DNA of 64,000 nt from Heterodontus francisci (lineage: Eukaryota). The translations under genes and the position numbers were made by a program. Under the pieces are notes generated by a model, which was given only the letters and a program-made list of their open reading frames with translations, was not told where the DNA came from and made no database searches. The number at the start of each line of letters is the position of its first letter. Within the stretch, counting starts at the first letter, position 1. Location: assembly GCF_036365525.1 (NCBI RefSeq), contig NC_090412.1:11822123-11886122 (forward strand), written 5' to 3'. Below are positions 13,600-43,422 of this stretch, in pieces.

Positions 13600-14090
13600 T
13601 GATGTTATCATGCTGAACTTTCTAGTGCTTTTGTAAGGCCACACATTGAATACTACCCTTGGCTAGAACAAGGGAGTCATGAAAGCCAAGTGATGCAAAG
13701 AGGGGCAATGCAGCTAATCTAAAGTGCCATAGGACTGAGTAATAAGGAGAGATAGAGTTTGATCTCTTTAGCCTCAAAAGGAAGTGAATGAGAGGAAACC
13801 TAATAGATGTATATAAATGGTATGGAATGGAATAGCTAGCTAATTCTAAGCATTATTGCCAGTTAAGAATGCAGGACAAACAGACATGGGTACAAACTGG
13901 GTAAAAGCTCAACTTAGGACCAATGTCAGGAAGCACTTCTTCACACAGGGTGATCAATATCTGGAATGGTAGAGTAGTCAGGCCAAAACTTCTGGAGTCT
14001 TCAAAAGGCAGTTAGACAATATAATGGGGGGAGGGCAGAGACTTTAGGTTTTTAAGGAAGGATGAACTGAAAGAGCCAAATGACTGCCTT
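13600..14090 (+). mobile_element. Highly decayed CR1 3' fragment (triplicated)
   Basis: Nucleotide resemblance to the CR1 end (gtaaggccacacattgaatac; gtcaggaagcacttcttcacacag; ctggaat). Confidence 0.5.
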
Positions 14091-14104
14091 CATTGTTGTG
14101 ATTC

Positions 14105-14325
14105 AACACCACCAAAAACAGATTAACTGTCCATTTCTATCAATGCTGTTAGTTAATGGGATCTTGTGTACAAAATAGTTGCTATGCTTACATACATGGC
14201 CAGTCCTATGGCACTTTGGATCAGCTGCATTGCCCCTCTTTGCATTTCAAAGCAATTCAATGTACGTTAAGTGCTTTGAGACATTTTTAAGAGACATGAA
14301 AAGGTGCTATATAAATGCAAATCTT
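14105..14325 (+). mobile_element. DeuSINE/L2-tail-like fragment (similar tails at ~16010-16085 and, on the minus strand, ~19295-19355)
   Basis: Tail motif ...aagtgctttgagac...catgaaaaggtgctatataaatgcaa and cattggctgtaaagcgctttgggat...gtgaaaggcg..ataaatgcaa. Confidence 0.5.
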
Positions 14326-16499
14326 CTTTTATATTAAAGATTCAGAATTCATATTGGCCTGAGATTTTGGGTTCCAATCCAAATGAGACATATTAGTTCT
14401 GGGGACTGTTACAATTTTCAAATTGTCATAGAGGGTCAAATACTTCAAGTTCACATACAAATTGGGTAAGATGCAGAATAATGATTCCCATTCTCACTCT
14501 ATCCCAATACTGTCTCCCAGAAAAACATCTGGAAGTGGTCCAGTTTAGATTTCTCTTTCTCACATTGGCCCCCTCACTTCATTGAGATTGCCACTTTTGT
14601 GTGAAATTATTCCTTTGAGTTCAGGATTTATGCCCCCAGGGTCTGGATTTGACTGCCCAAACCAATTTCACTCAGGGTTCTTATAGAAAACACTAAAAGA
14701 AAAATTGCATCAAACTGGATTGAAACCCTGATCTCAAGTGTGAAAGTGTTGTAATGCATTTTTACCACTTTCTAACTCACCTACATTCCATGGTGCAATC
14801 CCTATCTGACACTATAGTCAGAGGTTTTCTTCAATGATCACTGACCTTCAAGGCAAGCTTTTATTTACTATTGTAATTTTGTTTTGGGTGCATTCACCGT
14901 TTATGAGGAGTTACAAAGACGGACAGGTAAAGACCCTTTGGTGCATCCAACCTGTCCCACCAGGAGTTCTGAATATTTGTGCCTGAACAGACGGAAGAGA
15001 GGGAGATTTTATACAGTATATCACCTAAAATTGTGAAGCAACAAAGTACATAACATTAATAACTTGCCCCAGATCAAAGAGGTAGACAGTAAATCATTCC
15101 ATAAAACAATGTTTATGGTACACTTGTCAAGCATAATTTTGTATGAATCCAGAAGCTGGGGAATTAAGAAATTGTCTCCCTCGCAATACCCCTTCCTTCC
15201 ACAAGGCGACGCGGATAAATCTTTATTGGCAAGGTCCAGGAACTCAGTGAGGTTCAATTGGGAGTTGATCGCTGTGGCGGTAATGATTTATTAAAACGTG
15301 TTACACCCGTTTTAGACAGGAGGTCGTTGACTTTCAGAGTTTCATCTTTCGATGCTGTCTCAAATCCCACAGAAACAGTAATACTTGCTGTCCAAGGGAC
15401 GCTGCTTTGAATCACATTTCCTGACAGTTGGTTCCCATTAATTTTCTTTTTTCTAATCAGCGCATTTCCGAGTAATGATGTAAGACTGCTCGGAGTCAGT
15501 AATCTTACACTGGGTTCTGGTTTGACATTCCATGGGGTATCAATCCCATTGACTGATTTCACAGCCAATGTGCAAAGTTCTCACTGGAGGGAGCTATCTG
15601 ACCTTAATTTAAATACTTGGCGAGTTTACACTTTCTCCTCCCCACTCGGTAAATAGTATTGGGACATGTGCAAGAGAGCACTCTAGAACAAGACAATTCA
15701 GAGTTCTGACAAGGAAGGAGCCAACACTGCCAAACTGGAATCTTCAACTGCTGAGAAGGGAATACAGGCAGAAGTAAAAGTGTGAGATAACTTCTGGAGA
15801 GGCCTGACACACTCCATAGTGCATTTGCAAAACCGATTGGGGCCCATGTTGCTAGTTTTAATGGCACTTCAATGCAAATACGCATCTAAAACTGCTTCAA
15901 AAGTCATAGTTGCAACTGCGTCCAATGTAGGGCCATTGTGTCCAGAAGATGTGTGGAGGCTAAGCCACAGGCTTTAACCTATTTGAAATCATTGGTTTAT
16001 TGATTGGACTCCAAAAGCACTTCATTGGCTGTAAAGCGCTTTGGGATCTCCTGAAGTCGTGAAAGGCGTTAAATAAATGCAAATCATTCCTTTTTTTAGC
16101 AGTCAGACTTTCTTCAGTTGCCGTTTTCACGAATTTCTAAATATGTTCCAAAATAACTAAGCTTGGAGATGTTAACCTGCAATCAATATTAATTATAGTT
16201 AGCCAAAAGACCTTTATAATCTTCTGTAGTTCAAGTCTTGTAAAAGCAGTCACCATGAGACTACATGTACAAAGCGCCCACCTGTCCAGAGAGGAGGAAC
16301 AAATCGGGGACATTTACCCGCAAGACGCTTGTCTATAAAGTGTACTTTTAAGAATGAGAGAGACAAAGATATGAGGCTTTAAAGTTGAATTTTAAAAGTA
16401 TATGTTTATCATATTTATTTTGGTTTAAAATTATATGTCGAAATGAATTTCGTTCATAAATTTCTTTTCATGAACTTCTCTAATCAACTTAAATATATT

Positions 16500-16695
16500 C
16501 TAATATATTTCATAAAAATATGTAATCCGCTGGATAGAATTTTGGTTTGGGTGATTTGAGCTGTTTTCTATGTCGAACCTCTGGCCGAGTTCAAGGTTAC
16601 GTCAGATAAGATTACTGTTAATGTGATTCGATGTAATCTCAAATTGTGAACGCGTCTGGTGTGAAGACAAACGCCTTGTCTACATTTGAGGAATC
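16500..16695 (+). promoter_or_regulatory. Putative LRIT2 proximal promoter with CRX/OTX-type sites (copies at 29758-29953 and 43016-43211)
   Basis: TAATCC at 16523, AGATTA (=TAATCT) at 16609 and TAATCT at 16634, all within 175 bp of the ATG of a retina-expressed gene. Confidence 0.5.
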
Positions 16696-16802
16696 ATGGA
16701 CATACTTTGGAACATTTACTGTCTTCTTCTGCTCTGTTCTGCTAAACGAACAGTTGCATCTTGTGTGCCGGAGTGTTCTTGCAGAAATGATAGCTTTGGA
16801 AG
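16696..16802 (+). CDS. LRIT2: LRIT2 copy 1, exon 1 (signal peptide + LRRNT)
   Basis: Read manually; not in the ORF track. ATG at 16696 gives MDILWNIYCLLLLCSAKRTVASCVPECSCRNDSFGR, followed by donor AG|gtgag at 16802/16803. Confidence 0.88.
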
Positions 16803-16906
16803 GTGAGAATCAGGTTTTCACTGTTGTTTGAGTTACCATTTCGTGAAATTTGTAGGTGTATATTTGAAAATGAGGATCGTTTGCAAATGTGTGTTTTGTT
16901 TTACAG

Positions 16907-17688
16907 AAGTTTGCTCTGCATATCTTCCTCTTTGCGAAGAATACCAGTGAATATTCCACCCGATATCAAAAAAATCAGAATAGAAAATTCTCGTCTGGCA
17001 GAATTACCTCGTGGTGCGTTCTCCGTAACCCGTGCCTTGGAATACCTGTGGCTGAATTTTAATGATATTACACTCATGCATGCGAAGAGTCTGCAAGATA
17101 TGACCAATCTATCCGAGTTGCGAATGCAAGGGAACAAATTGCGTTCAGTACCATGGACAGCTTTCCAGGATTGTCCCGCTTTGAAAATTTTGGATTTGAA
17201 GCACAATCGACTGGATGTTCTTCCAGAACATGCTCTGAGGTATCTCACCAACTTGACCTACTTGGACATATCCTTCAACCAGCTGACAGTGATTTCTCCA
17301 GATGTGTTCCTAAACTGGCCGGTCTATCAGAGAACACAGCAGGTTGAGGGTCAAGAGAAAAGTACCTCCAACGCAGTACTAGCTCTCCATAATAATCCAT
17401 GGTTCTGTGACTGCCGTCTTAAAGGTTTTGTACATTTCGTCAAATCCATCAGTCCCCCTATTATTCTGATGAATTCTTACCTATCCTGTTCAGGCCCAGA
17501 TTCCAGGGCAGGGAAATTTTTCTACGAAGTGGAACTAAAAAGTTGCTTTAAACCGTTAGCAACGTCTGAGAACGCGAATGTTAGTGTTCCACTTAGAGAG
17601 AAAGTACATCTTTCCTGTGAAGCCAAAGGAAATCCTACCCCTACAGTGTGGTGGACAAATGGTGTGAAGATCATTCGGAGATTTAATG
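16907..17688 (+). CDS. LRIT2: LRIT2 copy 1, exon 2 (LRRs, LRRCT, Ig start)
   Basis: Acceptor ttacag|A at 16906/16907 and donor AAT G|gtatgt at 17688/17689. Motifs IRIENS, LEYLWLNFN, SVPWTAF, VFLNWP and ALHNNPWFCDCRL match LRIT2. Confidence 0.93.
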
Positions 17689-17932
17689 GTATGTTCCTAT
17701 TGTCACTATCTGAAAGTTAGCCTTTTTTTTTTACCTTCTTACAATAGCATTTAAAACCGCATTCTGGAAAACGAAAGCCACAAAGTTTACCACCTTTTTA
17801 TGAGATGGCTTTTGAGTCTAACAAAAGTTTAATTTATAGACCACCAAATGATACATCACGTGATTTATAAAGGAATTACATTATGAGTACTTACAAAATC
17901 TTGCACATAGTCTGACTTTCCATAAATGTCAC

Positions 17933-18252
17933 GTTTACTTTATTTAGAGATACAGCACTGAAACAGGCCCTTCGGCCCACCGAGTCTGTGCCGACCAACA
18001 ACCACCCATTTATACTAACCCTACAGTAATCCCATATTCCCTATCACCTACCTACGCTAGGGACAATTTACAATGGCCAATTTACCTATCACCTGCAAGT
18101 CTTTGGCTGTGGAAGGAAACTGGAGCACCCGGGGAAAACCCACGCAGACACAGGGAGAACTTGCAAACTCCACACAAGCAGTACCCAGAATCAAACCTGG
18201 GTCCCTGGAGCTGTGAGGCTGCGGTGCTAACCACTGCGTCACTGTGCCGCCC
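17933..18252 (-). mobile_element. tRNA-derived V-SINE (HE1-like) in LRIT2 intron 2; copies at 31191-31510 and 44449-44768
   Basis: tRNA-like head ggcggcacagtg..gcagtggttagcac, V-domain gtgtggagtttgcaagttctccctgtgtctgcgtgggttt, CR1-like tail gggccgaagggcctgtttcagtgctgtatctct. Confidence 0.85.
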
Positions 18253-19610
18253 TCAAGTTATCACTTGCTGCACACTTAGTACCATTTTGTTGATAACCCC
18301 CTTATTATAAAGTAGTAGACCCTCTAAATCACCATGAGGAAAACCCTGAGATCTGTTAGTGTATGTGTATATATTTCGTATAAGACATCAATGCAAACTG
18401 TCATTTCTGGGTTGGTTGTGGGCTAAATGATAAAGATTGATTGCTATGATTAATTGACAACTCTATTAGCAGTATATCATGCGACAGTAGAAGGGAACTA
18501 GATGGGTCTTGGACTTTTTTCATCCTGCAAGTCCTAGTTTCCTAAACCATAACTTGATTCCTCAGAGTATGCAGATTAATTTTATTAATTAATATTCAGT
18601 AATTTTGCTGCTCTGATATCAGACCCCATTGTACTTCTGCACCCATGACATCACAAACCAATAACGTTCTAACCAGTTTAGTTGTCTACAGCAACATAGT
18701 ATTTCATGAAGGAAATTAAGGAAAGTATAATTTGCTTGCATCAAATGCGGAGGGATGGATTATGAACATTTTTGATGTTCTTTAACTGGTCTGGAGTCAA
18801 TTTGCCATTATATCAGTGAAACTCATTCCTTTATGCTTGGGATAAATTGGGTAGCACTTTTCTGACCATTGTACTACCACTTCTGTCTCAATGCAAAGTG
18901 ATCTCAGGTGTACAACACAGCAATTTCACCATATAACTTGCAAGTCAGAATTCCTTCGAATTTCTAAACACAGTTAAGGTGAGTTGTGAGATCAGCTGTA
19001 GTATTTAGTCATATCTCATTTGGGGTTCCAACCTGATGTTGTATAACTACAACCCAGGTCATCGTCAGAATTTTAAAAGTATCCAAGTCATCGATTGGAG
19101 CGCTTGGGCCATTAATAATATCAACAAGTTCAGAGAGAGCCCAGATTCCAACCTTACTCCCTCATAACATTAGAAATTGGATGTCAGGACGGTCAATCTA
19201 TGACGTCAACCATATCTAAAGACCCCTATTTGCTGCACTCAATGCACCCTGCAGTAATAAGTAATGTTACAGATTCAAAAAGGTTGAAAAAAGAAATACT
19301 TGCATTTAGAGAGTGCTTTTCATGAACACAAGCTATCCCAAAGCACTTTACAGCCAATTTAGAACTTTTGAGTTGAGTAAAACTTTTTTTTAAAAGAAGA
19401 GTGCAAGGATGTTGAATTGCAGGAAAAGACATGCAATTCCCATCTCACTCTGTTAAGTTTCTGTACCTGAAGTAATTTGACTCAATGTTTTTCCTTTGTG
19501 CTTATGGTGGGAGCTTAGACAATATTATATACATTTTATATAAAACTGTGAATAGTTTGCATTAATAATGGAAATTATGTAAATAAAACAAATCTTTATA
19601 TTAATTATAG

Positions 19611-20416
19611 TGTCTGTCACAAATATTGATGAAGAAACAGTGAAGTCAGTGCTGGTGATTCCATCAGCCCACAGTACAGATGAAGGAAGTTACATTTGCA
19701 TTACTACTAACTATCTTGGAAACTCATCTGTGCGGATTCTGGTGACAATTTTAACTTCAGAAACTTTACCTACCCCATCATCCTTGTCCCCTTCATCCTT
19801 GGAGGAGGAGAATGTTTATATAGATGTTAGGATTGCAAAGCAGACAGTATATGGCATAACCCTGGAGTGGTACACAGCAACACGGAACCCTGCTGAAACC
19901 TGGTACACCCTGCACTTCGGGAAATTTGAAGATGCTAAAAAGGAAATGATTTACATCGGACCAGGGGTAAATACTTATGCAATTAATGATCTGTTTCCAG
20001 CAACAAAGTACAAGGTGTGCGTGACACTGAGGAACCAGCCTCCGAAGAGAAGTCAATGCATTATATTTGTTACAGGTAGTGATATCAGTGAAATGGAGCA
20101 AAGAGAGAAGCTCATTCACATTATAGTCATTGTGTGCGCCATGGTTTTGGCAGTCCCAGCAGGAATGTACGCTTGTACGACAGAGACCCGTTTCAGCTGC
20201 TTTGATAGATGTGGCAAGTTTTGTCGAAGACAAAGACGAGGAGAAAAAACGCTGAAGACTGGAGCACGGGATGTCACCTTTGACAGTTTGCAGACAGGCA
20301 GCGATGCTGAACTCTGTAACAGAGACTCCAAGGAAGACAGGAGGCGACGTAAAAAATCAGATGACAAAACCCATAAGACCAAAACCGAGCACAAGAATAG
20401 TGATGAATTGTATTAG
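19611..20416 (+). CDS. LRIT2: LRIT2 copy 1, exon 3 (Ig end, FN3, TM, tail)
   Basis: Acceptor attatag|TG at 19610/19611. Contains YIDVRIAKQTVYGITLEW, IGPGVNTYAINDLFPATKY and TM LIHIIVIVCAMVLAVPAGMY. Spliced CDS is 107+782+806=1695 nt = 564 aa + stop. Confidence 0.93.
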
Positions 20417-22570
20417 ACAAAACTAGCATTAGCTTGTTTTCGTCAAAACCTACTTAAGGCACCAGTGAATATTTTATAATTAGGGCTGGATGCCCTGACT
20501 ATATTACACATCTGTTGACAATATGGCACAGTTATTGTGGTCTGTGTTAAAACATGACTATCTGTTATTGCCATTTATAGACACACTTCTGGCATCGAGA
20601 TTAAATAGCCATTAACAAACAGAGTAAAAATCTTATATATGCTAGCTGATCTCCTGTAGTATTTTACATGGGGAATTAAAAGCAAGTGTTGTCTTCAGGT
20701 GAAGTGGGGTTAGAGGGCAGGATACAATTTGACCAGGGTACACTGGTCCACATTTTATGTCCCACTTTATGTAATATTTTGATTTAATATTTATAACTAA
20801 AAACACATGACAAGTTGGGAGGCAGAGAAATAGTTAGTTGGAGGCTGATGTTCTCTACAGTATAAGCTGGGAGACATAGAACTAATGGGCTACAGTGCCA
20901 TCACTGGTCGGAGGATTTAATTATAATGTGATAGGTTTACATAGACAGTTTCAATTATGTGTCGGCATAGAAATTCATAATGGAATAAATGCAGGTGTAG
21001 GATTTTTGATATTATTTCTTCTGTGTATTATATGTTACTTATATCATATCAAAGGATTAACTTTCTCACAATTTTACTTTGCCACAAAGGCATTTGGTCA
21101 AATGCAACTAAAATAAATTTAATTCAAAGCACAAGTTCTTACCTAAACTAGTCAATGAAAAACATTCAGGAAGATGAGGATGTGCTGAATGTTGTACAGC
21201 TGTTCAGGAATATCCTGTAAAATAACTATTAAAAAGAGGTTAACATAACTTGTAAACTAACAAAAGTACTAATAAAGATAGCCAGCACTTGAAAAACATT
21301 TTTAAAATTACTCATTATCACCTGAATAGGATTGTTTGCATCAACCCAATTTTTGAATAGGTAAACTAATCCTAGGGATAAAATCAACCTTCGGTATAGA
21401 TCCAGTCAAAGGAAGAGATGTTCCAAGCCAGCAAAAGCATAAGATAGCAGCGAAAGAAACTATGAAGAGTCAGAGGTGGAGCGGGGAGTTTACTCATAAG
21501 TACAGCATAGCAAAAGACAGAAAAGTGATTGATATGAATCACTGGTCACTCAAAGACCAATAATAGAAGGAAGTCAAGATGGTTTGTTAAGAAAATAAAA
21601 ATGATGAGATTGGTGAACCCATGTTCATGAATCTTAGGTCAAAAAAGCAAGGCAATTGAACATGTCACCCTTTCAAGAAGCTGGTTAGCTTGGGGGAAAA
21701 TCCTATCAGCATTGAGCTAATCAAGTTTTACGAATTTGTGTTTACCATAGTTCAAAAGGACAAGTATGAAGTACTAATATGTGTAAAGGTCAGGTTATGA
21801 AGATGTGATTGAGATGGAAAATTGTCTGTTCACTTTAGGTCAAGTTGGAAAAAATGTGAAGAAATATATAGGAAAAAGTAGATGAAAGCCAACATTTTAA
21901 CCAAATATAAATGAGTTACGCACAGTATCAGATTTAATTGGTTGAAAATAATGAAAGGAAAGTATGGATTATAGACTGTTTCACAAGGTATGAAGCACTG
22001 AAGTGTCAAGAGATTGTTATTGCACAATTTCATTCTATGAATAGCTTGCATGAAATTGGCTTAGTGCACATTATAAATTAAGAACACAGCATCAGTGGAA
22101 TTTATTGTGAAAAAACTATAGAGATAGTGTAATGGAAGAATATATTTAATCATTTTCTGTGACCATTCAAAGAAGTAACACATACACAGTTTGAAATGGA
22201 TCCAACATATGTATCAATTTATACTTGATCTACTTCTACTCCTAAATATTCTAAAACTTTTTTAAAAATCGACAAGATACACAATGGTGCTGAGTAACTC
22301 ACCTAATCAGCTATTGTCCATCCGAAGTTTAAATCAATCCTTATATTTTTTTATCTAGAAATATTAAGGAAGCATAGAAATAGTTTTAAGGAAGATTATT
22401 TAATATTTGACTCTTCATTCGCTGAGAAAATTGCTATTTTTTATCAGTCTGCTCAATTTTTGTAGTGTAATCAACTCAATGAAATTACATAGTTAATTAG
22501 AATTTTACAGCACAGAAACAGGCCATTCAGCCCAGCGAGTCTATGCCATTGTTTATGCTCCAAATGCACC

Positions 22571-22895
22571 TCATAGAGTCATAGTCATAGAGAGATACAG
22601 CACTGAAATAAGCCCTTCGGCCCACCGAGTCTGTGCTAACCACCAACCACCCATTTGTATTAATCCCATATTTCCCTACCACATCCCCTCAATTCTCCTT
22701 GCACCTACCTACACGAGGGGCAATTTACAATGGCCAATTTACCTATCAACCTGCAAGTCTTTGGCTGTGGGAGGAAACCCTGCGGAAACCCACGCGGTCA
22801 CAGGGAGAACGTGCAAACTCCGCACAGGCAGTACCCAGAACCGAACCCGGGTCACTGGAGCTGTGATGCTAACCACTGCGCCACTGTGCTGCCCC
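22571..22895 (-). mobile_element. tRNA-derived V-SINE (HE1-like); copies at 35829-36153 and 49087-49411
   Basis: Same head, V-domain and tail as above; inserted into a short CR1 3' fragment. Confidence 0.85.
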
Positions 22896-23902
22896 ATTTT
22901 ATTTCATTTAACCCTAGCAACACATCATAGAATCATAGAAATCACTTACATGGCATATGAAAATTGTTTTCGACCAAGCATAGCTGACCTTTGTGCCCAA
23001 CTGAGGGAGTGGTGGACAGAGGGAAAAAACTACAGAGAAAGAATAATAAGTGCTGAAACACCATATGGAATATCCATTAGAAATAGCCAGATTCATCCCA
23101 GAAGGCTTAAGAGTCTAATTGCCCATTTGATAGTACCTTCCCAGTTGGGAGAAGAGGATAACCAGAGGCTGGCAGCAGCTCAGTGTTGCCCTTTCAGTAG
23201 CTGGATCATAAGTTCACTGCCAGCAGTAACAGCCTTTCCAAAAGAAAATCCACAGTCATTCAGATTTTCTTAGCTTCTAAAATTGCAGTCATTTTGTTAG
23301 CCATTCTAAAACTGCACTGAACACTCATATAAAAGAATAATTTAAACATCTAATCATTTGAATTAATAAAATGAAATGAATTGCATATCTAAAGATGGAA
23401 GAAAGCTCTCCTAATGGCTCAGTGAGCTTATCGAATATTTAGCTAAACACAGCAGAAAGGTCTTACACTGAATCGAGTGTTGAGGTAGCTAATCCCATTA
23501 CAACTTCTTTCAGCACTGTTGTGTTGGGGGAGAATTGGCCACAGTTCCTCCTCCTGATCAGAATCCACAAAGTTCTGATCTAAGTGTTTGTGCTTGAACT
23601 TCAAATTTCATGGTGGGTCTTGGTTGTGATGCCTGCGACAGTGGAAGAGCTGAGCTGAACTCTCAAGGCTTTACAGGTAACAGCTAAGTACAATGGGTTA
23701 GGTACAAGATGGCCTGTGGAACTACACTCCAGTGACAAATCAACTCCTTCAGGAGATAAGGGAGGCGAATGACGAGCATGCACAAAAAATTATTGCATAC
23801 ATAAATACACAAATAAATACTTAACAAGAAAGTGGAAGAGAAAGAAGTCAAAGTGTGAATGAAACTAAATTTAAATCACTGATGGAGCCCCATGATATTA
23901 AA

Positions 23903-24274
23903 GCAAAATACTGCGGATGCTGGAAATCTGAAACAAAAACAAGAAATGCTGGAGTCACTCAGCAGGTCTGGCAGCATCTGTGGAAAGAGAAGCAGAGTTA
24001 ACGTTTCGGGTCAGTGACCCTTCTTCGGAACTGACAAATATTAGAAAAGTCACAGATTATAAACAAGTGAGGTGGGGGTGGGGCGAGATAACAAAGGAGA
24101 AGGTGCAGATTGGACCAGGCCACATAGCTGACCAAAAGGTCACGGAGCAAAGGCAAACAATATGTTAATGGTGTGTTGAAAGACAAAGCATTAGTACAGA
24201 TTAGGTGTGAATACACTGAATATTGAACAGCAGCAAGTGCAAACCTGAAGAAAAACAACCTGAAAACCCACTGT
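23903..24274 (-). mobile_element. Orphan left arm of the Penelope-like palindrome (end of unit 1)
   Basis: Identical to 50419-50790; cut at the palindrome apex by the duplication junction. Confidence 0.8.
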
Positions 24275-27200
24275 AATGGTAGAGTGGGGGATATGCCAGG
24301 CCATGAGGTTACAGATTATGGTCGAGTACAGTTCTGCTGCTGCTGATGGCCCACAGCACCTCACGGGTGCCCAGTTTTGCATTGCTAGATCTCTTCGAAT
24401 TTTCTCCCATTTGACACAGTGGTAGTGCTACACAACATGATGGTGGGTGGCCTCAGTGTGATGACGGGACTTTGTCTCCACAAGGACTGTGTGGTGGTCA
24501 CTCCTACCAATACTGTCATGGACAGATGCATCTGCAACAGGTAGATTGGTGAGGACGAGGTCAAGTAGGTTTTTCCCTCTTGTTGGTTCCCTCGCCACCT
24601 GCCACAGTGCCAGTCTAGCAGCTGTGTCCTGTAGGCTGTAGGCTGAATGGAGACGGCCAAAACACATTAGGACCCTGACAGTTAACAGACAAAGGGTGCT
24701 ATCAACCCATCAATCTAAGTTGGATTTGAACCTGGAAGTGAAAGGCCAATCTCTAATCTTTTGCTTCCTCTTATACGTTAACATCTATTTTTATTCATTG
24801 CTCAGTGCATTTGGATGTCTTTCTGTGCACTGTAAGAAATAAGTACCTTGCAATGCATCTTTCTTAAAATAGATACCATTTTGTTTCACATCACTCTATG
24901 ATGTTATTTCTGTGTCACTTCCCATGTCTTGATTCAGAAGAGTGACAGACATTTTATGTAACAAAATGATCAGCACCAGTTTTTAATTTACCTTTGTATG
25001 TCTGTGGAATGACTATTGTGTATTTTACTTATGTTGTGAATCTCTGAGAATATAACAATTAGGTAAATGGATGCTTTTCTACCAGCACTTATTGTTTTCC
25101 TTTTACACTTTTACATGAAGTTTAGTGTTGTCTCAATGAAAGGTATAATTTTAAAGATGCATTTTGCAGGTTGGTCAGGACTTTTGAACATTTGCCACTC
25201 GGCCAACACACACATCACATCTGTACAGTAAGTGTCAGAATTCCAATAGTATCTGAAGGCAGTGTTCCTCTTGAACAAAATTTTATGCTCATTTATTACC
25301 AAGTGAAACATGGTGATTAAGGTCTTAAGGCAACTTTGTGCAGAACTAATGCTAGCTTGGCGAAAGCATTAATTGAGCAGATCCAACTAACTTAAACCAT
25401 GTTACCTATTGCATCATGGTACAGGGAGTTCTCTATGATGATACCAGATTCAAACAGGATCTTACATTTTGAGAGCAAACTAAAGTCTGCACATTGGAAG
25501 TGTTTTTTTCAATGTACTTCCGAACATGTCAACATAGGAACAGGAATGGCCCATTTAGTCCATCGAGCCTGTTCTGTCATTCAATGAGATCATGGGGGGT
25601 CGATCTTTGACCTAACTACACATACCTGCCTTTGCCTCATATCCCTTAATACCTTTGGTTAACAAAAATCTATCAACCTCAGATTTAAAATTAACAGCTG
25701 ATCTAGCATCAATTGCCATTTGTGAAAGAGAGTTCCAAACTTCGACTAGCCTTTGTGTGAAAGAGTATTTCCAAATTTCACACCAGAAAGGTCGGGCTCT
25801 AATTTTTAGACTATGCATCTAGTCCTTGACTCCCCAACCAGCTGAAATGGTTTCTCTCTTTCTATCCTATCCATTCCCCTTAAAATCTTGAAAACTTCAA
25901 TCAAATCACCCCTTAACTTTCTAAATACCAAGGAATACAATCCTATAACAATGCATGACAAATTGTATCAGGTAGTCGGTGTATATTAACATATTTGAGA
26001 CATGGTGAAACTGGAGAAAATCAAGCCGCCTTCATGACTAAAATAATAGAGCATAACAAGTAACTAGACATTGCTAGAAGCTCTAAGGGAGATACAGTGA
26101 ATGACTTTCATCAGATCCTAACCAGCAAGTATATGGTGTGCTGGGCGATAGTGATATTTTTCATTTTACTAAGTTTGATTATGGGCTGATTCCTCTTTCT
26201 GCAATCATGAAGCAGAATTGATGCTTCTCACCGACAACCCTGGATTATCACTGTAGATGTTCCCAACTGAAGAAAGATACATGTTCTTATCTATAGAAGC
26301 TGCACTATAAATAACGTTTGTAAGACATTTATAACAAATTCCACCAGCTATCTGTAAACTTTCCTAGCGTTTGTTATATATGTATGTATGGAAGACAAGG
26401 TAGTTAGGATTCAAATTTGTTCTTTGGTTCGTTCTCTAAAACCTTCCCAATAAATAGTTACATTCTCAAATTCACAAAAACTAGACAGATACTTTCAAGG
26501 AAGTTGAATGTAGGGTAATTTATTTTATGAAAGTTTTATAAACAATTATAGATGTATCTTGGTATTATGAAATATTCAGCACTGCTAGATCTAGACCTCC
26601 AAAAGCAGGGGACCATTATTAGGAATGCTGACTGCACATATTGGGAAATCATGGCTGCACTCTGCTCAATACATTTCCCCAGCAATCCCCTAATAAGTGT
26701 TCACTGCTTCATCTTTTTAAGGTATTTCCTTGTTCACCTGTACATTTTATCTAAGTTACCCACTGCCTTGAGCTTGTGTAGCAGTCTCTCATGTGGAACT
26801 TTTTCCAAGAGTTTTCTGAAGGCTATGTTTTATTGCTAAATCAGTAGGGTATAAATCTGATGTTATCATGCTGAACTTTCTAGTGCTTTTGTAAGGCCAC
26901 ACATTGAATACTACCCTTGGCTAGAACAAGGGAGTCATGAAAGCCAAGTGATGCAAAGAGGGGCAATGCAGCTAATCTAAAGTGCCATAGGACTGAGTAA
27001 TAAGGAGAGATAGAGTTTGATCTCTTTAGCCTCAAAAGGAAGTGAATGAGAGGAAACCTAATAGATGTATATAAATGGTATGGAATGGAATAGCTAGCTA
27101 ATTCTAAGCATTATTGCCAGTTAAGAATGCAGGACAAACAGACATGGGTACAAACTGGGTAAAAGCTCAACTTAGGACCAATGTCAGGAAGCACTTCTTC

Positions 27201-29953
27201 ACACAGGGTGATCAATATCTGGAATGGTAGAGTAGTCAGGCCAAAACTTCTGGAGTCTTCAAAAGGCAGTTAGACAATATAATGGGGGGAGGGCAGAGAC
27301 TTTAGGTTTTTAAGGAAGGATGAACTGAAAGAGCCAAATGACTGCCTTCATTGTTGTGATTCAACACCACCAAAAACAGATTAACTGTCCATTTCTATCA
27401 ATGCTGTTAGTTAATGGGATCTTGTGTACAAAATAGTTGCTATGCTTACATACATGGCCAGTCCTATGGCACTTTGGATCAGCTGCATTGCCCCTCTTTG
27501 CATTTCAAAGCAATTCAATGTACGTTAAGTGCTTTGAGACATTTTTAAGAGACATGAAAAGGTGCTATATAAATGCAAATCTTCTTTTATATTAAAGATT
27601 CAGAATTCATATTGGCCTGAGATTTTGGGTTCCAATCCAAATGAGACATATTAGTTCTGGGGACTGTTACAATTTTCAAATTGTCATAGAGGGTCAAATA
27701 CTTCAAGTTCACATACAAATTGGGTAAGATGCAGAATAATGATTCCCATTCTCACTCTATCCCAATACTGTCTCCCAGAAAAACATCTGGAAGTGGTCCA
27801 GTTTAGATTTCTCTTTCTCACATTGGCCCCCTCACTTCATTGAGATTGCCACTTTTGTGTGAAATTATTCCTTTGAGTTCAGGATTTATGCCCCCAGGGT
27901 CTGGATTTGACTGCCCAAACCAATTTCACTCAGGGTTCTTATAGAAAACACTAAAAGAAAAATTGCATCAAACTGGATTGAAACCCTGATCTCAAGTGTG
28001 AAAGTGTTGTAATGCATTTTTACCACTTTCTAACTCACCTACATTCCATGGTGCAATCCCTATCTGACACTATAGTCAGAGGTTTTCTTCAATGATCACT
28101 GACCTTCAAGGCAAGCTTTTATTTACTATTGTAATTTTGTTTTGGGTGCATTCACCGTTTATGAGGAGTTACAAAGACGGACAGGTAAAGACCCTTTGGT
28201 GCATCCAACCTGTCCCACCAGGAGTTCTGAATATTTGTGCCTGAACAGACGGAAGAGAGGGAGATTTTATACAGTATATCACCTAAAATTGTGAAGCAAC
28301 AAAGTACATAACATTAATAACTTGCCCCAGATCAAAGAGGTAGACAGTAAATCATTCCATAAAACAATGTTTATGGTACACTTGTCAAGCATAATTTTGT
28401 ATGAATCCAGAAGCTGGGGAATTAAGAAATTGTCTCCCTCGCAATACCCCTTCCTTCCACAAGGCGACGCGGATAAATCTTTATTGGCAAGGTCCAGGAA
28501 CTCAGTGAGGTTCAATTGGGAGTTGATCGCTGTGGCGGTAATGATTTATTAAAACGTGTTACACCCGTTTTAGACAGGAGGTCGTTGACTTTCAGAGTTT
28601 CATCTTTCGATGCTGTCTCAAATCCCACAGAAACAGTAATACTTGCTGTCCAAGGGACGCTGCTTTGAATCACATTTCCTGACAGTTGGTTCCCATTAAT
28701 TTTCTTTTTTCTAATCAGCGCATTTCCGAGTAATGATGTAAGACTGCTCGGAGTCAGTAATCTTACACTGGGTTCTGGTTTGACATTCCATGGGGTATCA
28801 ATCCCATTGACTGATTTCACAGCCAATGTGCAAAGTTCTCACTGGAGGGAGCTATCTGACCTTAATTTAAATACTTGGCGAGTTTACACTTTCTCCTCCC
28901 CACTCGGTAAATAGTATTGGGACATGTGCAAGAGAGCACTCTAGAACAAGACAATTCAGAGTTCTGACAAGGAAGGAGCCAACACTGCCAAACTGGAATC
29001 TTCAACTGCTGAGAAGGGAATACAGGCAGAAGTAAAAGTGTGAGATAACTTCTGGAGAGGCCTGACACACTCCATAGTGCATTTGCAAAACCGATTGGGG
29101 CCCATGTTGCTAGTTTTAATGGCACTTCAATGCAAATACGCATCTAAAACTGCTTCAAAAGTCATAGTTGCAACTGCGTCCAATGTAGGGCCATTGTGTC
29201 CAGAAGATGTGTGGAGGCTAAGCCACAGGCTTTAACCTATTTGAAATCATTGGTTTATTGATTGGACTCCAAAAGCACTTCATTGGCTGTAAAGCGCTTT
29301 GGGATCTCCTGAAGTCGTGAAAGGCGTTAAATAAATGCAAATCATTCCTTTTTTTAGCAGTCAGACTTTCTTCAGTTGCCGTTTTCACGAATTTCTAAAT
29401 ATGTTCCAAAATAACTAAGCTTGGAGATGTTAACCTGCAATCAATATTAATTATAGTTAGCCAAAAGACCTTTATAATCTTCTGTAGTTCAAGTCTTGTA
29501 AAAGCAGTCACCATGAGACTACATGTACAAAGCGCCCACCTGTCCAGAGAGGAGGAACAAATCGGGGACATTTACCCGCAAGACGCTTGTCTATAAAGTG
29601 TACTTTTAAGAATGAGAGAGACAAAGATATGAGGCTTTAAAGTTGAATTTTAAAAGTATATGTTTATCATATTTATTTTGGTTTAAAATTATATGTCGAA
29701 ATGAATTTCGTTCATAAATTTCTTTTCATGAACTTCTCTAATCAACTTAAATATATTCTAATATATTTCATAAAAATATGTAATCCGCTGGATAGAATTT
29801 TGGTTTGGGTGATTTGAGCTGTTTTCTATGTCGAACCTCTGGCCGAGTTCAAGGTTACGTCAGATAAGATTACTGTTAATGTGATTCGATGTAATCTCAA
29901 ATTGTGAACGCGTCTGGTGTGAAGACAAACGCCTTGTCTACATTTGAGGAATC

Positions 29954-30060
29954 ATGGACATACTTTGGAACATTTACTGTCTTCTTCTGCTCTGTTCTGC
30001 TAAACGAACAGTTGCATCTTGTGTGCCGGAGTGTTCTTGCAGAAATGATAGCTTTGGAAG
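29954..30060 (+). CDS. LRIT2: LRIT2 copy 2, exon 1
   Basis: Same sequence as 16696-16802 at offset +13258. Confidence 0.85.
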
Positions 30061-30164
30061 GTGAGAATCAGGTTTTCACTGTTGTTTGAGTTACCATTTC
30101 GTGAAATTTGTAGGTGTATATTTGAAAATGAGGATCGTTTGCAAATGTGTGTTTTGTTTTACAG

Positions 30165-30946
30165 AAGTTTGCTCTGCATATCTTCCTCTTTGCGAAGAAT
30201 ACCAGTGAATATTCCACCCGATATCAAAAAAATCAGAATAGAAAATTCTCGTCTGGCAGAATTACCTCGTGGTGCGTTCTCCGTAACCCGTGCCTTGGAA
30301 TACCTGTGGCTGAATTTTAATGATATTACACTCATGCATGCGAAGAGTCTGCAAGATATGACCAATCTATCCGAGTTGCGAATGCAAGGGAACAAATTGC
30401 GTTCAGTACCATGGACAGCTTTCCAGGATTGTCCCGCTTTGAAAATTTTGGATTTGAAGCACAATCGACTGGATGTTCTTCCAGAACATGCTCTGAGGTA
30501 TCTCACCAACTTGACCTACTTGGACATATCCTTCAACCAGCTGACAGTGATTTCTCCAGATGTGTTCCTAAACTGGCCGGTCTATCAGAGAACACAGCAG
30601 GTTGAGGGTCAAGAGAAAAGTACCTCCAACGCAGTACTAGCTCTCCATAATAATCCATGGTTCTGTGACTGCCGTCTTAAAGGTTTTGTACATTTCGTCA
30701 AATCCATCAGTCCCCCTATTATTCTGATGAATTCTTACCTATCCTGTTCAGGCCCAGATTCCAGGGCAGGGAAATTTTTCTACGAAGTGGAACTAAAAAG
30801 TTGCTTTAAACCGTTAGCAACGTCTGAGAACGCGAATGTTAGTGTTCCACTTAGAGAGAAAGTACATCTTTCCTGTGAAGCCAAAGGAAATCCTACCCCT
30901 ACAGTGTGGTGGACAAATGGTGTGAAGATCATTCGGAGATTTAATG
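30165..30946 (+). CDS. LRIT2: LRIT2 copy 2, exon 2
   Basis: ORF translation identical to copy 1 at offset +13258; splice sites intact. Confidence 0.9.
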
Positions 30947-32868
30947 GTATGTTCCTATTGTCACTATCTGAAAGTTAGCCTTTTTTTTTTACCTTCTTAC
31001 AATAGCATTTAAAACCGCATTCTGGAAAACGAAAGCCACAAAGTTTACCACCTTTTTATGAGATGGCTTTTGAGTCTAACAAAAGTTTAATTTATAGACC
31101 ACCAAATGATACATCACGTGATTTATAAAGGAATTACATTATGAGTACTTACAAAATCTTGCACATAGTCTGACTTTCCATAAATGTCACGTTTACTTTA
31201 TTTAGAGATACAGCACTGAAACAGGCCCTTCGGCCCACCGAGTCTGTGCCGACCAACAACCACCCATTTATACTAACCCTACAGTAATCCCATATTCCCT
31301 ATCACCTACCTACGCTAGGGACAATTTACAATGGCCAATTTACCTATCACCTGCAAGTCTTTGGCTGTGGAAGGAAACTGGAGCACCCGGGGAAAACCCA
31401 CGCAGACACAGGGAGAACTTGCAAACTCCACACAAGCAGTACCCAGAATCAAACCTGGGTCCCTGGAGCTGTGAGGCTGCGGTGCTAACCACTGCGTCAC
31501 TGTGCCGCCCTCAAGTTATCACTTGCTGCACACTTAGTACCATTTTGTTGATAACCCCCTTATTATAAAGTAGTAGACCCTCTAAATCACCATGAGGAAA
31601 ACCCTGAGATCTGTTAGTGTATGTGTATATATTTCGTATAAGACATCAATGCAAACTGTCATTTCTGGGTTGGTTGTGGGCTAAATGATAAAGATTGATT
31701 GCTATGATTAATTGACAACTCTATTAGCAGTATATCATGCGACAGTAGAAGGGAACTAGATGGGTCTTGGACTTTTTTCATCCTGCAAGTCCTAGTTTCC
31801 TAAACCATAACTTGATTCCTCAGAGTATGCAGATTAATTTTATTAATTAATATTCAGTAATTTTGCTGCTCTGATATCAGACCCCATTGTACTTCTGCAC
31901 CCATGACATCACAAACCAATAACGTTCTAACCAGTTTAGTTGTCTACAGCAACATAGTATTTCATGAAGGAAATTAAGGAAAGTATAATTTGCTTGCATC
32001 AAATGCGGAGGGATGGATTATGAACATTTTTGATGTTCTTTAACTGGTCTGGAGTCAATTTGCCATTATATCAGTGAAACTCATTCCTTTATGCTTGGGA
32101 TAAATTGGGTAGCACTTTTCTGACCATTGTACTACCACTTCTGTCTCAATGCAAAGTGATCTCAGGTGTACAACACAGCAATTTCACCATATAACTTGCA
32201 AGTCAGAATTCCTTCGAATTTCTAAACACAGTTAAGGTGAGTTGTGAGATCAGCTGTAGTATTTAGTCATATCTCATTTGGGGTTCCAACCTGATGTTGT
32301 ATAACTACAACCCAGGTCATCGTCAGAATTTTAAAAGTATCCAAGTCATCGATTGGAGCGCTTGGGCCATTAATAATATCAACAAGTTCAGAGAGAGCCC
32401 AGATTCCAACCTTACTCCCTCATAACATTAGAAATTGGATGTCAGGACGGTCAATCTATGACGTCAACCATATCTAAAGACCCCTATTTGCTGCACTCAA
32501 TGCACCCTGCAGTAATAAGTAATGTTACAGATTCAAAAAGGTTGAAAAAAGAAATACTTGCATTTAGAGAGTGCTTTTCATGAACACAAGCTATCCCAAA
32601 GCACTTTACAGCCAATTTAGAACTTTTGAGTTGAGTAAAACTTTTTTTTAAAAGAAGAGTGCAAGGATGTTGAATTGCAGGAAAAGACATGCAATTCCCA
32701 TCTCACTCTGTTAAGTTTCTGTACCTGAAGTAATTTGACTCAATGTTTTTCCTTTGTGCTTATGGTGGGAGCTTAGACAATATTATATACATTTTATATA
32801 AAACTGTGAATAGTTTGCATTAATAATGGAAATTATGTAAATAAAACAAATCTTTATATTAATTATAG

Positions 32869-33674
32869 TGTCTGTCACAAATATTGATGAAGAAACAGTG
32901 AAGTCAGTGCTGGTGATTCCATCAGCCCACAGTACAGATGAAGGAAGTTACATTTGCATTACTACTAACTATCTTGGAAACTCATCTGTGCGGATTCTGG
33001 TGACAATTTTAACTTCAGAAACTTTACCTACCCCATCATCCTTGTCCCCTTCATCCTTGGAGGAGGAGAATGTTTATATAGATGTTAGGATTGCAAAGCA
33101 GACAGTATATGGCATAACCCTGGAGTGGTACACAGCAACACGGAACCCTGCTGAAACCTGGTACACCCTGCACTTCGGGAAATTTGAAGATGCTAAAAAG
33201 GAAATGATTTACATCGGACCAGGGGTAAATACTTATGCAATTAATGATCTGTTTCCAGCAACAAAGTACAAGGTGTGCGTGACACTGAGGAACCAGCCTC
33301 CGAAGAGAAGTCAATGCATTATATTTGTTACAGGTAGTGATATCAGTGAAATGGAGCAAAGAGAGAAGCTCATTCACATTATAGTCATTGTGTGCGCCAT
33401 GGTTTTGGCAGTCCCAGCAGGAATGTACGCTTGTACGACAGAGACCCGTTTCAGCTGCTTTGATAGATGTGGCAAGTTTTGTCGAAGACAAAGACGAGGA
33501 GAAAAAACGCTGAAGACTGGAGCACGGGATGTCACCTTTGACAGTTTGCAGACAGGCAGCGATGCTGAACTCTGTAACAGAGACTCCAAGGAAGACAGGA
33601 GGCGACGTAAAAAATCAGATGACAAAACCCATAAGACCAAAACCGAGCACAAGAATAGTGATGAATTGTATTAG
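32869..33674 (+). CDS. LRIT2: LRIT2 copy 2, exon 3
   Basis: ORF translation identical to copy 1 at offset +13258. Confidence 0.9.
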
Positions 33675-36600
33675 ACAAAACTAGCATTAGCTTGTTTTCG
33701 TCAAAACCTACTTAAGGCACCAGTGAATATTTTATAATTAGGGCTGGATGCCCTGACTATATTACACATCTGTTGACAATATGGCACAGTTATTGTGGTC
33801 TGTGTTAAAACATGACTATCTGTTATTGCCATTTATAGACACACTTCTGGCATCGAGATTAAATAGCCATTAACAAACAGAGTAAAAATCTTATATATGC
33901 TAGCTGATCTCCTGTAGTATTTTACATGGGGAATTAAAAGCAAGTGTTGTCTTCAGGTGAAGTGGGGTTAGAGGGCAGGATACAATTTGACCAGGGTACA
34001 CTGGTCCACATTTTATGTCCCACTTTATGTAATATTTTGATTTAATATTTATAACTAAAAACACATGACAAGTTGGGAGGCAGAGAAATAGTTAGTTGGA
34101 GGCTGATGTTCTCTACAGTATAAGCTGGGAGACATAGAACTAATGGGCTACAGTGCCATCACTGGTCGGAGGATTTAATTATAATGTGATAGGTTTACAT
34201 AGACAGTTTCAATTATGTGTCGGCATAGAAATTCATAATGGAATAAATGCAGGTGTAGGATTTTTGATATTATTTCTTCTGTGTATTATATGTTACTTAT
34301 ATCATATCAAAGGATTAACTTTCTCACAATTTTACTTTGCCACAAAGGCATTTGGTCAAATGCAACTAAAATAAATTTAATTCAAAGCACAAGTTCTTAC
34401 CTAAACTAGTCAATGAAAAACATTCAGGAAGATGAGGATGTGCTGAATGTTGTACAGCTGTTCAGGAATATCCTGTAAAATAACTATTAAAAAGAGGTTA
34501 ACATAACTTGTAAACTAACAAAAGTACTAATAAAGATAGCCAGCACTTGAAAAACATTTTTAAAATTACTCATTATCACCTGAATAGGATTGTTTGCATC
34601 AACCCAATTTTTGAATAGGTAAACTAATCCTAGGGATAAAATCAACCTTCGGTATAGATCCAGTCAAAGGAAGAGATGTTCCAAGCCAGCAAAAGCATAA
34701 GATAGCAGCGAAAGAAACTATGAAGAGTCAGAGGTGGAGCGGGGAGTTTACTCATAAGTACAGCATAGCAAAAGACAGAAAAGTGATTGATATGAATCAC
34801 TGGTCACTCAAAGACCAATAATAGAAGGAAGTCAAGATGGTTTGTTAAGAAAATAAAAATGATGAGATTGGTGAACCCATGTTCATGAATCTTAGGTCAA
34901 AAAAGCAAGGCAATTGAACATGTCACCCTTTCAAGAAGCTGGTTAGCTTGGGGGAAAATCCTATCAGCATTGAGCTAATCAAGTTTTACGAATTTGTGTT
35001 TACCATAGTTCAAAAGGACAAGTATGAAGTACTAATATGTGTAAAGGTCAGGTTATGAAGATGTGATTGAGATGGAAAATTGTCTGTTCACTTTAGGTCA
35101 AGTTGGAAAAAATGTGAAGAAATATATAGGAAAAAGTAGATGAAAGCCAACATTTTAACCAAATATAAATGAGTTACGCACAGTATCAGATTTAATTGGT
35201 TGAAAATAATGAAAGGAAAGTATGGATTATAGACTGTTTCACAAGGTATGAAGCACTGAAGTGTCAAGAGATTGTTATTGCACAATTTCATTCTATGAAT
35301 AGCTTGCATGAAATTGGCTTAGTGCACATTATAAATTAAGAACACAGCATCAGTGGAATTTATTGTGAAAAAACTATAGAGATAGTGTAATGGAAGAATA
35401 TATTTAATCATTTTCTGTGACCATTCAAAGAAGTAACACATACACAGTTTGAAATGGATCCAACATATGTATCAATTTATACTTGATCTACTTCTACTCC
35501 TAAATATTCTAAAACTTTTTTAAAAATCGACAAGATACACAATGGTGCTGAGTAACTCACCTAATCAGCTATTGTCCATCCGAAGTTTAAATCAATCCTT
35601 ATATTTTTTTATCTAGAAATATTAAGGAAGCATAGAAATAGTTTTAAGGAAGATTATTTAATATTTGACTCTTCATTCGCTGAGAAAATTGCTATTTTTT
35701 ATCAGTCTGCTCAATTTTTGTAGTGTAATCAACTCAATGAAATTACATAGTTAATTAGAATTTTACAGCACAGAAACAGGCCATTCAGCCCAGCGAGTCT
35801 ATGCCATTGTTTATGCTCCAAATGCACCTCATAGAGTCATAGTCATAGAGAGATACAGCACTGAAATAAGCCCTTCGGCCCACCGAGTCTGTGCTAACCA
35901 CCAACCACCCATTTGTATTAATCCCATATTTCCCTACCACATCCCCTCAATTCTCCTTGCACCTACCTACACGAGGGGCAATTTACAATGGCCAATTTAC
36001 CTATCAACCTGCAAGTCTTTGGCTGTGGGAGGAAACCCTGCGGAAACCCACGCGGTCACAGGGAGAACGTGCAAACTCCGCACAGGCAGTACCCAGAACC
36101 GAACCCGGGTCACTGGAGCTGTGATGCTAACCACTGCGCCACTGTGCTGCCCCATTTTATTTCATTTAACCCTAGCAACACATCATAGAATCATAGAAAT
36201 CACTTACATGGCATATGAAAATTGTTTTCGACCAAGCATAGCTGACCTTTGTGCCCAACTGAGGGAGTGGTGGACAGAGGGAAAAAACTACAGAGAAAGA
36301 ATAATAAGTGCTGAAACACCATATGGAATATCCATTAGAAATAGCCAGATTCATCCCAGAAGGCTTAAGAGTCTAATTGCCCATTTGATAGTACCTTCCC
36401 AGTTGGGAGAAGAGGATAACCAGAGGCTGGCAGCAGCTCAGTGTTGCCCTTTCAGTAGCTGGATCATAAGTTCACTGCCAGCAGTAACAGCCTTTCCAAA
36501 AGAAAATCCACAGTCATTCAGATTTTCTTAGCTTCTAAAATTGCAGTCATTTTGTTAGCCATTCTAAAACTGCACTGAACACTCATATAAAAGAATAATT

Positions 36601-37160
36601 TAAACATCTAATCATTTGAATTAATAAAATGAAATGAATTGCATATCTAAAGATGGAAGAAAGCTCTCCTAATGGCTCAGTGAGCTTATCGAATATTTAG
36701 CTAAACACAGCAGAAAGGTCTTACACTGAATCGAGTGTTGAGGTAGCTAATCCCATTACAACTTCTTTCAGCACTGTTGTGTTGGGGGAGAATTGGCCAC
36801 AGTTCCTCCTCCTGATCAGAATCCACAAAGTTCTGATCTAAGTGTTTGTGCTTGAACTTCAAATTTCATGGTGGGTCTTGGTTGTGATGCCTGCGACAGT
36901 GGAAGAGCTGAGCTGAACTCTCAAGGCTTTACAGGTAACAGCTAAGTACAATGGGTTAGGTACAAGATGGCCTGTGGAACTACACTCCAGTGACAAATCA
37001 ACTCCTTCAGGAGATAAGGGAGGCGAATGACGAGCATGCACAAAAAATTATTGCATACATAAATACACAAATAAATACTTAACAAGAAAGTGGAAGAGAA
37101 AGAAGTCAAAGTGTGAATGAAACTAAATTTAAATCACTGATGGAGCCCCATGATATTAAA

Positions 37161-37532
37161 GCAAAATACTGCGGATGCTGGAAATCTGAAACAAAAACAA
37201 GAAATGCTGGAGTCACTCAGCAGGTCTGGCAGCATCTGTGGAAAGAGAAGCAGAGTTAACGTTTCGGGTCAGTGACCCTTCTTCGGAACTGACAAATATT
37301 AGAAAAGTCACAGATTATAAACAAGTGAGGTGGGGGTGGGGCGAGATAACAAAGGAGAAGGTGCAGATTGGACCAGGCCACATAGCTGACCAAAAGGTCA
37401 CGGAGCAAAGGCAAACAATATGTTAATGGTGTGTTGAAAGACAAAGCATTAGTACAGATTAGGTGTGAATACACTGAATATTGAACAGCAGCAAGTGCAA
37501 ACCTGAAGAAAAACAACCTGAAAACCCACTGT
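37161..37532 (-). mobile_element. Orphan left arm of the Penelope-like palindrome (end of unit 2)
   Basis: Identical to 50419-50790; cut at the palindrome apex. Confidence 0.8.
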
Positions 37533-43318: not shown

Positions 43319-43422
43319 GTGAGAATCAGGTTTTCACTGTTGTTTGAGTTACCATTTCGTGAAATTTGTAGGTGTATATTTGAAAATGAGGATCGTTTGC
43401 AAATGTGTGTTTTGTTTTACAG

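Follow-up and report, generated by a model that had tools for sequence, protein, structure and literature searches.

LRIT2 triplication next to a retroelement palindrome in Heterodontus francisci suggests that an insertion made a breakable spot from which the neighbouring gene was copied

In a window of 64,000 nucleotides of the Heterodontus francisci genome assembly (NC_090412.1, positions 11,822,123 to 11,886,122 of the forward strand), the gene LRIT2 is present in three identical direct copies, and both junctions of the array join the loop of a retroelement palindrome, which stands intact at the end of the last copy, to a site upstream of the gene. This arrangement suggests that the insertion of the element made a breakable spot and that the neighbouring gene was copied from it. 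Our preferred reading, to which we give a probability of about 0.55, is that the palindrome broke at its tip, that its left end was joined to or copied from a site 13 kb upstream, and that the third copy was added later by unequal exchange or by a loop of the assembler.

Comparison of the window with itself revealed an exact periodicity of 13,258 bp, in which 11015-37532 maps onto 24273-50790 over 26,518 bp with 100% identity. The array consists of three direct (head-to-tail) units, with 0 mismatches out of 13,258 in each of the three pairwise unit comparisons. The window contains no N and there is no gap between units. The units and their gene copies are the following:

11015..24272, plus strand: repeat unit 1, 13,258 bp (self-comparison), with a LINE remnant, LRIT2 copy 1, the left target-site copy, the tail, the left arm and part of the spacer
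24273..37530, plus strand: repeat unit 2, identical to unit 1 (0/13,258 mismatches)
37531..50788, plus strand: repeat unit 3, identical, running on into the intact palindrome (self-comparison)
16696..20416, plus strand: LRIT2 copy 1, exons 16696-16802, 16907-17688 and 19611-20416, 564 amino acids, GT-AG introns
29954..33674, plus strand: LRIT2 copy 2, identical
43212..46932, plus strand: LRIT2 copy 3, identical

Every unit holds a complete three-exon gene of 564 residues with no internal stop. The exon model matched P0001, named LRIT2 by NCBI, at 564 of 564 residues, so that the original prediction had named the duplicated gene correctly, and the gene is whole in each unit. Its product has the Pfam domain LRR_8 above the cut-off and Ig and fn3 domains below it, together with a signal peptide and a membrane segment, both judged by eye. 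Each copy could be expressed, since the units also include 5.7 kb upstream of the LRIT2 start and 3.5 kb beyond its stop, and 10 candidate poly(A) signals precede the element. The three proteins are identical, and any effect would be one of LRIT2 dosage and not of a new protein. In the part of the study available, zebrafish knockdown ties Lrit2 to eye size (PMC6951830); no data on Lrit2 dosage were found in the literature searched, and none of the matches listed from the open-access literature reported, in the text available for them, a prior LRIT2 duplication. The array is flanked by unduplicated sequence, with an LRIT paralogue at 546-7687 (pieces 30-45% identical) on one side and cadherin exons at 59208-62395 on the other.

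The palindrome that follows the third gene copy, and the parts of it that are found within the array, are made up of these features:

50450..50782, minus strand: left arm of the Penelope-like palindrome, 333 bp, 3' end outward (self-comparison)
50783..50792, no strand: spacer, 10 nt, predicted hairpin loop, containing the right breakpoint (self-comparison and folding)
50793..51125, plus strand: right arm, 333 bp, 1 mismatch with respect to the left arm, single occurrence (self-comparison)
23903..24274, minus strand: half-palindrome closing unit 1, 372 bp (search for element copies)
37161..37532, minus strand: half-palindrome closing unit 2, 372 bp (search for element copies)
50404..50418, plus strand: target-site duplication, left copy, 15 bp (16 bp counting the G shared by 50403 and 51125), also at 23888-23902 and 37146-37160
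51126..51140, plus strand: target-site duplication, right copy
50419..50449, minus strand: 31-bp tail, on the left arm only, a feature described in the available parts of PMC3846280 and PMC8557442
51027..51063, plus strand: minimal hammerhead motif of the right arm, U4 changed to C (descriptor built on features excerpted from PMC4209133)
50512..50548, minus strand: minimal hammerhead motif of the left arm, with copies at 23996-24032 and 37254-37290 (descriptor search)

Its arms differ at one of 333 positions (50643/50932) and, with the 10-nt spacer, give a palindrome of 676 bp with a perfect core of 139 bp. A palindrome of 333 bp had been predicted at this place; the palindrome is there, with the figure of 333 bp applying to either arm and not to the whole. 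The central 96 nt folds into a single DNA hairpin with the spacer as its loop (z = -15.8), and no other inverted repeat of this kind (perfect arms of at least 12 bp, spacer of up to 60 nt) was found in the window. The G+C content is 43% in the arms and 35% in the central 60 bp. A search of the window for further copies of the element gave none beyond the four known arms. The last five bases of the spacer carry on a repeat of 15 bp that lies within the right arm, which hints that they may have been made during arm joining.

We class the palindrome, by its structure and not by a sequence match, as a Penelope-like insertion that is 5'-truncated and non-coding. The membership that had been proposed for it agrees with four structural features, namely inverted arms, a tail at one end, a target-site duplication and hammerhead motifs. 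The insert spans 50419-51125 and is bounded by a target-site duplication of 15-16 bp, AT-rich in its 3' part. Inverted 5'-truncated copies, a tail of 30-40 bp at one end and hammerheads in the terminal repeats are given as marks of Penelope-like insertions in the excerpted text of PMC8557442 and PMC3846280, and in the latter the head-to-head arrangement is the common case and the tail of the Adineta example measures 31 bp. The tail length found here also matches the spacing of the two reverse-transcription start sites in an anole element (PMC11167929), while the target-site duplication is longer than the 8-10 bp of the examples seen in PMC3846280.

With respect to the hammerhead motifs, those of both arms point outward, in a head-to-head inverted arrangement. 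They show a short helix I, an extra base after position 9, a G10.1-C11.1 pair and palindromic 15-16 positions, the last three being features of minimal hammerheads in the section of PMC4209133 consulted, and they carry the core change of U4 to C. The descriptor, which was composed after the motif had been seen, gave 0 hits in 60 simulated sequences of 36,762 bp and 0 in the rest of the window. Rfam gave 0 matches in the whole window at the gathering threshold. When it was run on the element with E values up to 10, 34 matches were obtained, all of them below the family cut-offs and none to a hammerhead family, and they were rejected; the strongest were to microRNA models, which fit any long hairpin. 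RNA folding of the ribozyme region did not favour the ribozyme fold, 3 of 3 sequences being no better than their shuffles, and this, together with the changed U4, leaves ribozyme activity unsupported. No coding sequence for a telomerase-like reverse transcriptase or a GIY-YIG endonuclease was found in the 374-bp truncated insert, as expected for a 5'-truncated copy.

The two junctions of the array and the upstream breakpoint lie as follows:

24273..24274, no strand: junction 1, GT overlap between the spacer (equivalent to 50789-90) and the LINE (equivalent to 11015-16) (sequence comparison)
37531..37532, no strand: junction 2, identical to junction 1 (sequence comparison)
11015..11016, no strand: left (upstream) breakpoint, within the protein-coding remnant of a decayed minus-strand LINE (sequence and domain search)

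Each junction is preceded by the left arm and the first 6 bases of the spacer and continues with what lies downstream of 11016; both parents have the intervening GT (11015-16 and 50789-90), and no base is inserted. The right (downstream) breakpoint is thereby placed at 50788-50790, that is, at spacer bases 6-8, 1-3 nt beyond the midpoint of the loop. The original prediction had described a junction between the spacer and a LINE at 11015 through a 2-bp GT, its recurrence at 37531, and a half-palindrome at the end of units 1 and 2. The coordinates are right and the GT is shared, 37531-32 is identical to 24273-74, and the halves, of 372 bp each, lie at 23903-24274 and 37161-37532. Its placement of the break within the 10-bp spacer also stands, with the refinement that only 6-8 of the 10 bases are carried. 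As for the LINE, the old age ascribed to it is borne out by a frameshifted reverse transcriptase piece (RVT_1, E 6.7e-10), which was found with a weak endonuclease piece (E 0.038, below the cut-off) in 2 of 4 fragments scanned; the left breakpoint sits between these two pieces.

A right-hand break placed at random would hit the spacer with p = 0.0008, and a 50-bp target with p = 0.004, in a post hoc test over the 12,276 bp from the last LRIT2 stop to the next cadherin exon, uncorrected for the number of windows scanned. An ordinary tandem duplication that ended in the spacer by accident is therefore hardly credible as an explanation, the palindrome being the only one of its kind in the window, even though the locus was chosen after the fact from many windows. 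Non-allelic homologous recombination was rejected as the first event, given that the flanks of the parental breakpoints (+/-200 bp) share no longer homology and that their longest common word is a 9-mer away from the break. Breakage-fusion-bridge or fold-back amplification was also rejected, as the units are direct and not inverted.

According to the preferred reading, a Penelope-like element would have inserted 3.5 kb past the LRIT2 stop as a head-to-head pair of its 3' terminal repeats, both 5'-truncated, the structure being observed and the manner of its formation presumed. In the germ line the palindrome would then have been extruded as a hairpin or cruciform and cut, and the hairpin-capped left end opened in the loop to give a short 3' end, as the known behaviour of palindromes suggests. 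On the sister chromatid, this end would have been joined by end joining, or would have primed copying, at the GT that lies 13,258 bp upstream. By whichever of these pathways, the product is the one observed: LRIT2 is duplicated whole and in direct orientation, the seam carries a half-palindrome, and the last copy has the palindrome intact. Both junctions are identical, which indicates one original event with copy three as secondary; since this copy reuses the same junction, it would come from unequal exchange between identical units or from an extra turn of an assembly loop.

Breakage at the tip is supported by the place of the cut, 1-3 nt off the middle of the loop in the window's one long palindrome (p about 0.0008), and by a clean junction in direct orientation without gap or N. 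It is further in keeping with the read-validated centre breaks of human Xq27.1, and the size and microhomology found here agree with those of replication-linked tandem duplications; both are considered below. In the portion of PMC7999016 available, cruciforms undergo cleavage at their base and the hairpin ends are then opened at the tip, in human cells by Gen1 and Artemis respectively, and eukaryotic forks stall at inverted Alus that a 12-bp spacer separates. The same text gives inverted, not direct, amplification as the best-studied product of hairpin-capped breaks, and this counts against tip breakage. Additionally, extrusion is less assured for arms with 43% GC than for PATRRs, which are more than 90% AT. 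The case comes from one locus.

An apex break or a template switch of the MMBIR/FoSTeS type had been proposed for this junction. The break at the tip is retained, but MMBIR/FoSTeS is not singled out: an overlap of 2 bp is within chance (p = 0.156), the junctions carry no templated insertions or nearby mutations, and nothing points to MMBIR specifically. Given that such an overlap is expected by chance in about 16% of cases, the sequence does not separate end joining from MMBIR.

It must also be considered that a fork could have stalled and switched template without any break, either because a strand stalled at the palindrome jumped back 13 kb or because the loop received a strand that had stalled near 11015. 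The short microhomology and the span of about 10 kb are typical of stalled-fork duplications in the part of PMC12309385 available, and a G-rich insert at 10171-10839, which contains 7 of the 17 G4Hunter-type peaks of the window and ends about 175 bp from the left breakpoint, offers a second possible stall site. However, the left break lies outside this G-rich tract, and the templated insertions and nearby mutations are missing. A polymerase that meets the hairpin should moreover halt at the base of the stem (about 50450 or 51125), where a stalled nascent strand would end, and not in the loop; the tip position would therefore fit hairpin opening better than simple fork stalling, which we regard as quite unlikely.

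The enzymes of the element itself might have acted, through a second cut by the endonuclease, reverse transcription of an unspliced antisense read-through RNA, or invasion of upstream DNA by a free cDNA end. Read on the minus strand, the layout is inverted repeat, direct repeat, host DNA and direct repeat, bounded by the target-site duplication; however, this layout arises automatically whenever the left target-site copy is part of the duplicated segment. In the anole, a Penelope-like enzyme cuts both strands and extends them, and it may also nick the pLTR of its own element (PMC11167929). The break coincides with the seam at which the arms were originally joined, but the junction is neither at the ribozyme site nor at an ATT motif. 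The captured DNA remains in place and has not been moved. A one-step model would not give copies 2 and 3 their left arm, as the template would be without one, and error-free reverse transcription of 13 kb would be needed, when the insert of the family here is 374 bp. We consider this route very unlikely.

The main concern about the array itself is an assembly or library artefact, in which the palindrome tip interrupts reads or contigs, a chimeric molecule, a bad gap fill or a graph loop makes the junction, and the animal has one LRIT2. There are 0 differences across 26,518 bp, and the unit length of 13 kb falls within that of long reads. The available text of 10.1101/2021.04.09.438957 documents false duplications of 7-17 kb, free of gaps, that palindromic chimeric reads had produced. 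A break during sequencing or assembly would be expected at the same tip, so that the tip position is no argument for an event in vivo. Nevertheless, the read chimeras published there duplicate as palindromes, in inverted orientation, whereas the units here are direct; the array also lacks the gaps or N between units and the allelic differences of the common heterotype false duplications described in the same source. Besides, a base-exact junction that occurs twice would need a graph loop, and so, normally, reads that span it. An artefact is thus an unlikely explanation, and the junction, known here from the assembled sequence, is probably real in the animal. If so, three is probably the true number of units; a true copy number of two or of more than three is rather unlikely. 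Should the array be false, it would document a specific assembly failure at such palindromes that inflates gene counts.

With respect to the order of events, insertion first and duplication second is supported as the parsimonious one, as had been predicted. The element would have come first, since it is complete within a single target-site duplication and its left arm is the same in all three units; a duplication during insertion would have copied the empty site into units 2 and 3. The junction contains no base that comes surely from the right arm and, therefore, is not on its own a proof that the palindrome was already complete before it. The arms differ at 1 of 333 positions and the units at 0, which agrees weakly with insertion first, given that the age interval of the arms, 54,000 to 12 million generations, overlaps the upper bound for the units. 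The arm mismatch could also be a copying error at insertion. At the rate of 7e-10 per base per generation given for the epaulette shark in the part of PMC10587355 available, taken as a proxy for this species, 0 differences between units are compatible with up to about 110,000-160,000 generations; perfect identity is thus not suspicious in itself. The duplication is recent.

Penelope inverted repeats, breakage at palindrome centres, microhomology duplications of 10 kb and Penelope-linked gene copy gain are each already known separately. A close likeness, as far as the excerpts of PMC6489244 and PMC11947168 describe it, is the 180-bp palindrome of human Xq27.1, with read-validated insertions at its centre and microhomology of 1-2 bp. 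Both cases share a break at the centre of a short palindrome, with microhomology of 1-2 bp in one Xq27.1 case; at Xq27.1 the copy gain amounts to tens to hundreds of kb, and MMBIR is proposed. Unlike Xq27.1, where distant DNA was inserted and both arms were kept as flanks, this locus has its adjacent DNA duplicated in direct tandem and retains one intact palindrome, itself the product of a retroelement.

PATRRs and inverted-Alu fragile sites also have long arms and a short spacer and break in the germ line or with replication, but their outcomes are translocations, deletions and inverted amplification, and PATRRs differ in base composition, as noted above (PMC7999016, as excerpted). In Plasmodium falciparum, direct tandem gene amplification goes with repair by microhomology and with a stable hairpin close to the breakpoint; the hairpins are small, lie a mean of 165 bp from shared breakpoints in long A/T tracts and, in the text available, are not derived from mobile elements (PMC6393310). 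The tandem duplications of stalled forks in BRCA1-deficient cells (median 11 kb) are similar in span, short microhomology and direct orientation, while they are somatic or arise at engineered barriers or nicks and, in the part of PMC12309385 available, have no natural palindrome at the junction. With Penelope-like insertions in general and the Penelope-mediated gene mobilisation of Adineta vaga this locus shares inverted 5'-truncated pLTRs, a one-end tail, a target-site duplication, a hammerhead and host gene copy gain (PMC3846280, PMC8557442, PMC11167929, PMC4209133, largely from excerpts). In contrast to Adineta vaga, where the excerpt of PMC3846280 describes a gene retro-copied to a new site by the enzymes of the element, the element here was most likely passive, its part being that of a fragile DNA structure. 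Among the matches listed from the open-access literature, no report of a Penelope palindrome whose tip breakage led to direct whole-gene amplification appeared in their titles or the starts of their abstracts.

A wider reading, speculative and rather unlikely, starts from the routine insertion of Penelope-like elements as head-to-head palindromes with a short spacer: every young copy would then be a ready-made fragile site, and genomes in which such elements are active might undergo recurrent direct duplications of about 10 kb that start at the tip and copy whole neighbouring genes. If this is true, the locus has been caught soon after such an event, and older events could be searched for by the half-palindromes that they left, ending where the tip once was. 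A real junction would tie the palindromes that Penelope elements make of themselves to tip breakage, with direct whole-gene amplification as the product in place of the usual deletion, translocation or inverted amplicon. This is a single, base-exact case, and its value lies in the genome-wide test that it suggests: units ending in a half-palindrome would provide a base-exact signature with which retroelement-seeded gene copy gain could be sought in slowly mutating vertebrates.

The genes and repeats around the LRIT2 copies of the array (three identical direct units, each with one LRIT2 gene) were annotated as follows.

546-7687, plus strand: LRIT-family paralogue, with exons encoding LRR, Ig and fn3 domains
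13693-13737 paired with 14201-14245, recurring in the other two units: inverted repeat of 45 bp, arms 96% identical, upstream of LRIT2
17946-18252 and 22591-22894 (and unit copies), and 56849-57198, both orientations: repeats of about 300-350 bp, 80-83% alike
52916-56640, minus strand: long LINE copy with an open RT frame of 754 codons (RVT_1, E 1.3e-34)
59208-62395, minus strand: cadherin-domain and membrane-proximal exons, tail to tail with the array

From the gene order, the LRIT-family paralogue is presumably LRIT1 and the cadherin exons presumably belong to CDHR1. Upstream of LRIT2, the arms of the 45-bp inverted repeat are separated by approximately 460 bp. Six TAATC-type or related short motifs (raw count), which resemble photoreceptor homeodomain sites, were found at 15500-16640, within the 1.5 kb that precede the start codon of LRIT2. 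The repeats of about 300-350 bp appear SINE-like, and the two in each unit face opposite ways. Further frames lie upstream of the RT frame in the long LINE, and related pieces were present at 1350-2621 and 62627-63325, with 71-74% identity.

The decayed LINE that holds the left breakpoint of the array is split by a G-rich insert of about 790 bp (10140-10931), the right end of which lies about 85 bp to the left of that breakpoint. Judged by eye, the insert is apparently MITE-like: its terminal inverted repeats are short and imperfect, and it seems to be flanked by a target duplication of 4 bp. It contains 7 of the 17 G4Hunter-type peaks in the window and, near position 10200, some two and a half TTAGGG-like units. 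An inverted piece at 57828-58119 was 71% identical to it.

In the palindrome formed by the truncated Penelope-like insertion, a 15-bp repeat internal to the right arm is continued by the last five spacer bases (whole stretch 50788-50817), which suggests slippage or a short fold-back as the two arms were joined. In addition, the tail of the left arm (50423-50429) shares a 7-mer at nearly equal offset with the target DNA, just past the right target-site copy (51146-51152), possibly reflecting local pairing during insertion, or chance. With respect to the hammerhead core (51031-51037, plus strand, and mirror copies), U4 was replaced by C in all four arms, that is, the left arm of each unit and the single right arm. 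Therefore, as judged from these copies, the change is older than the insertion, and the source of this young Penelope-like copy may have been an element with an impaired ribozyme.
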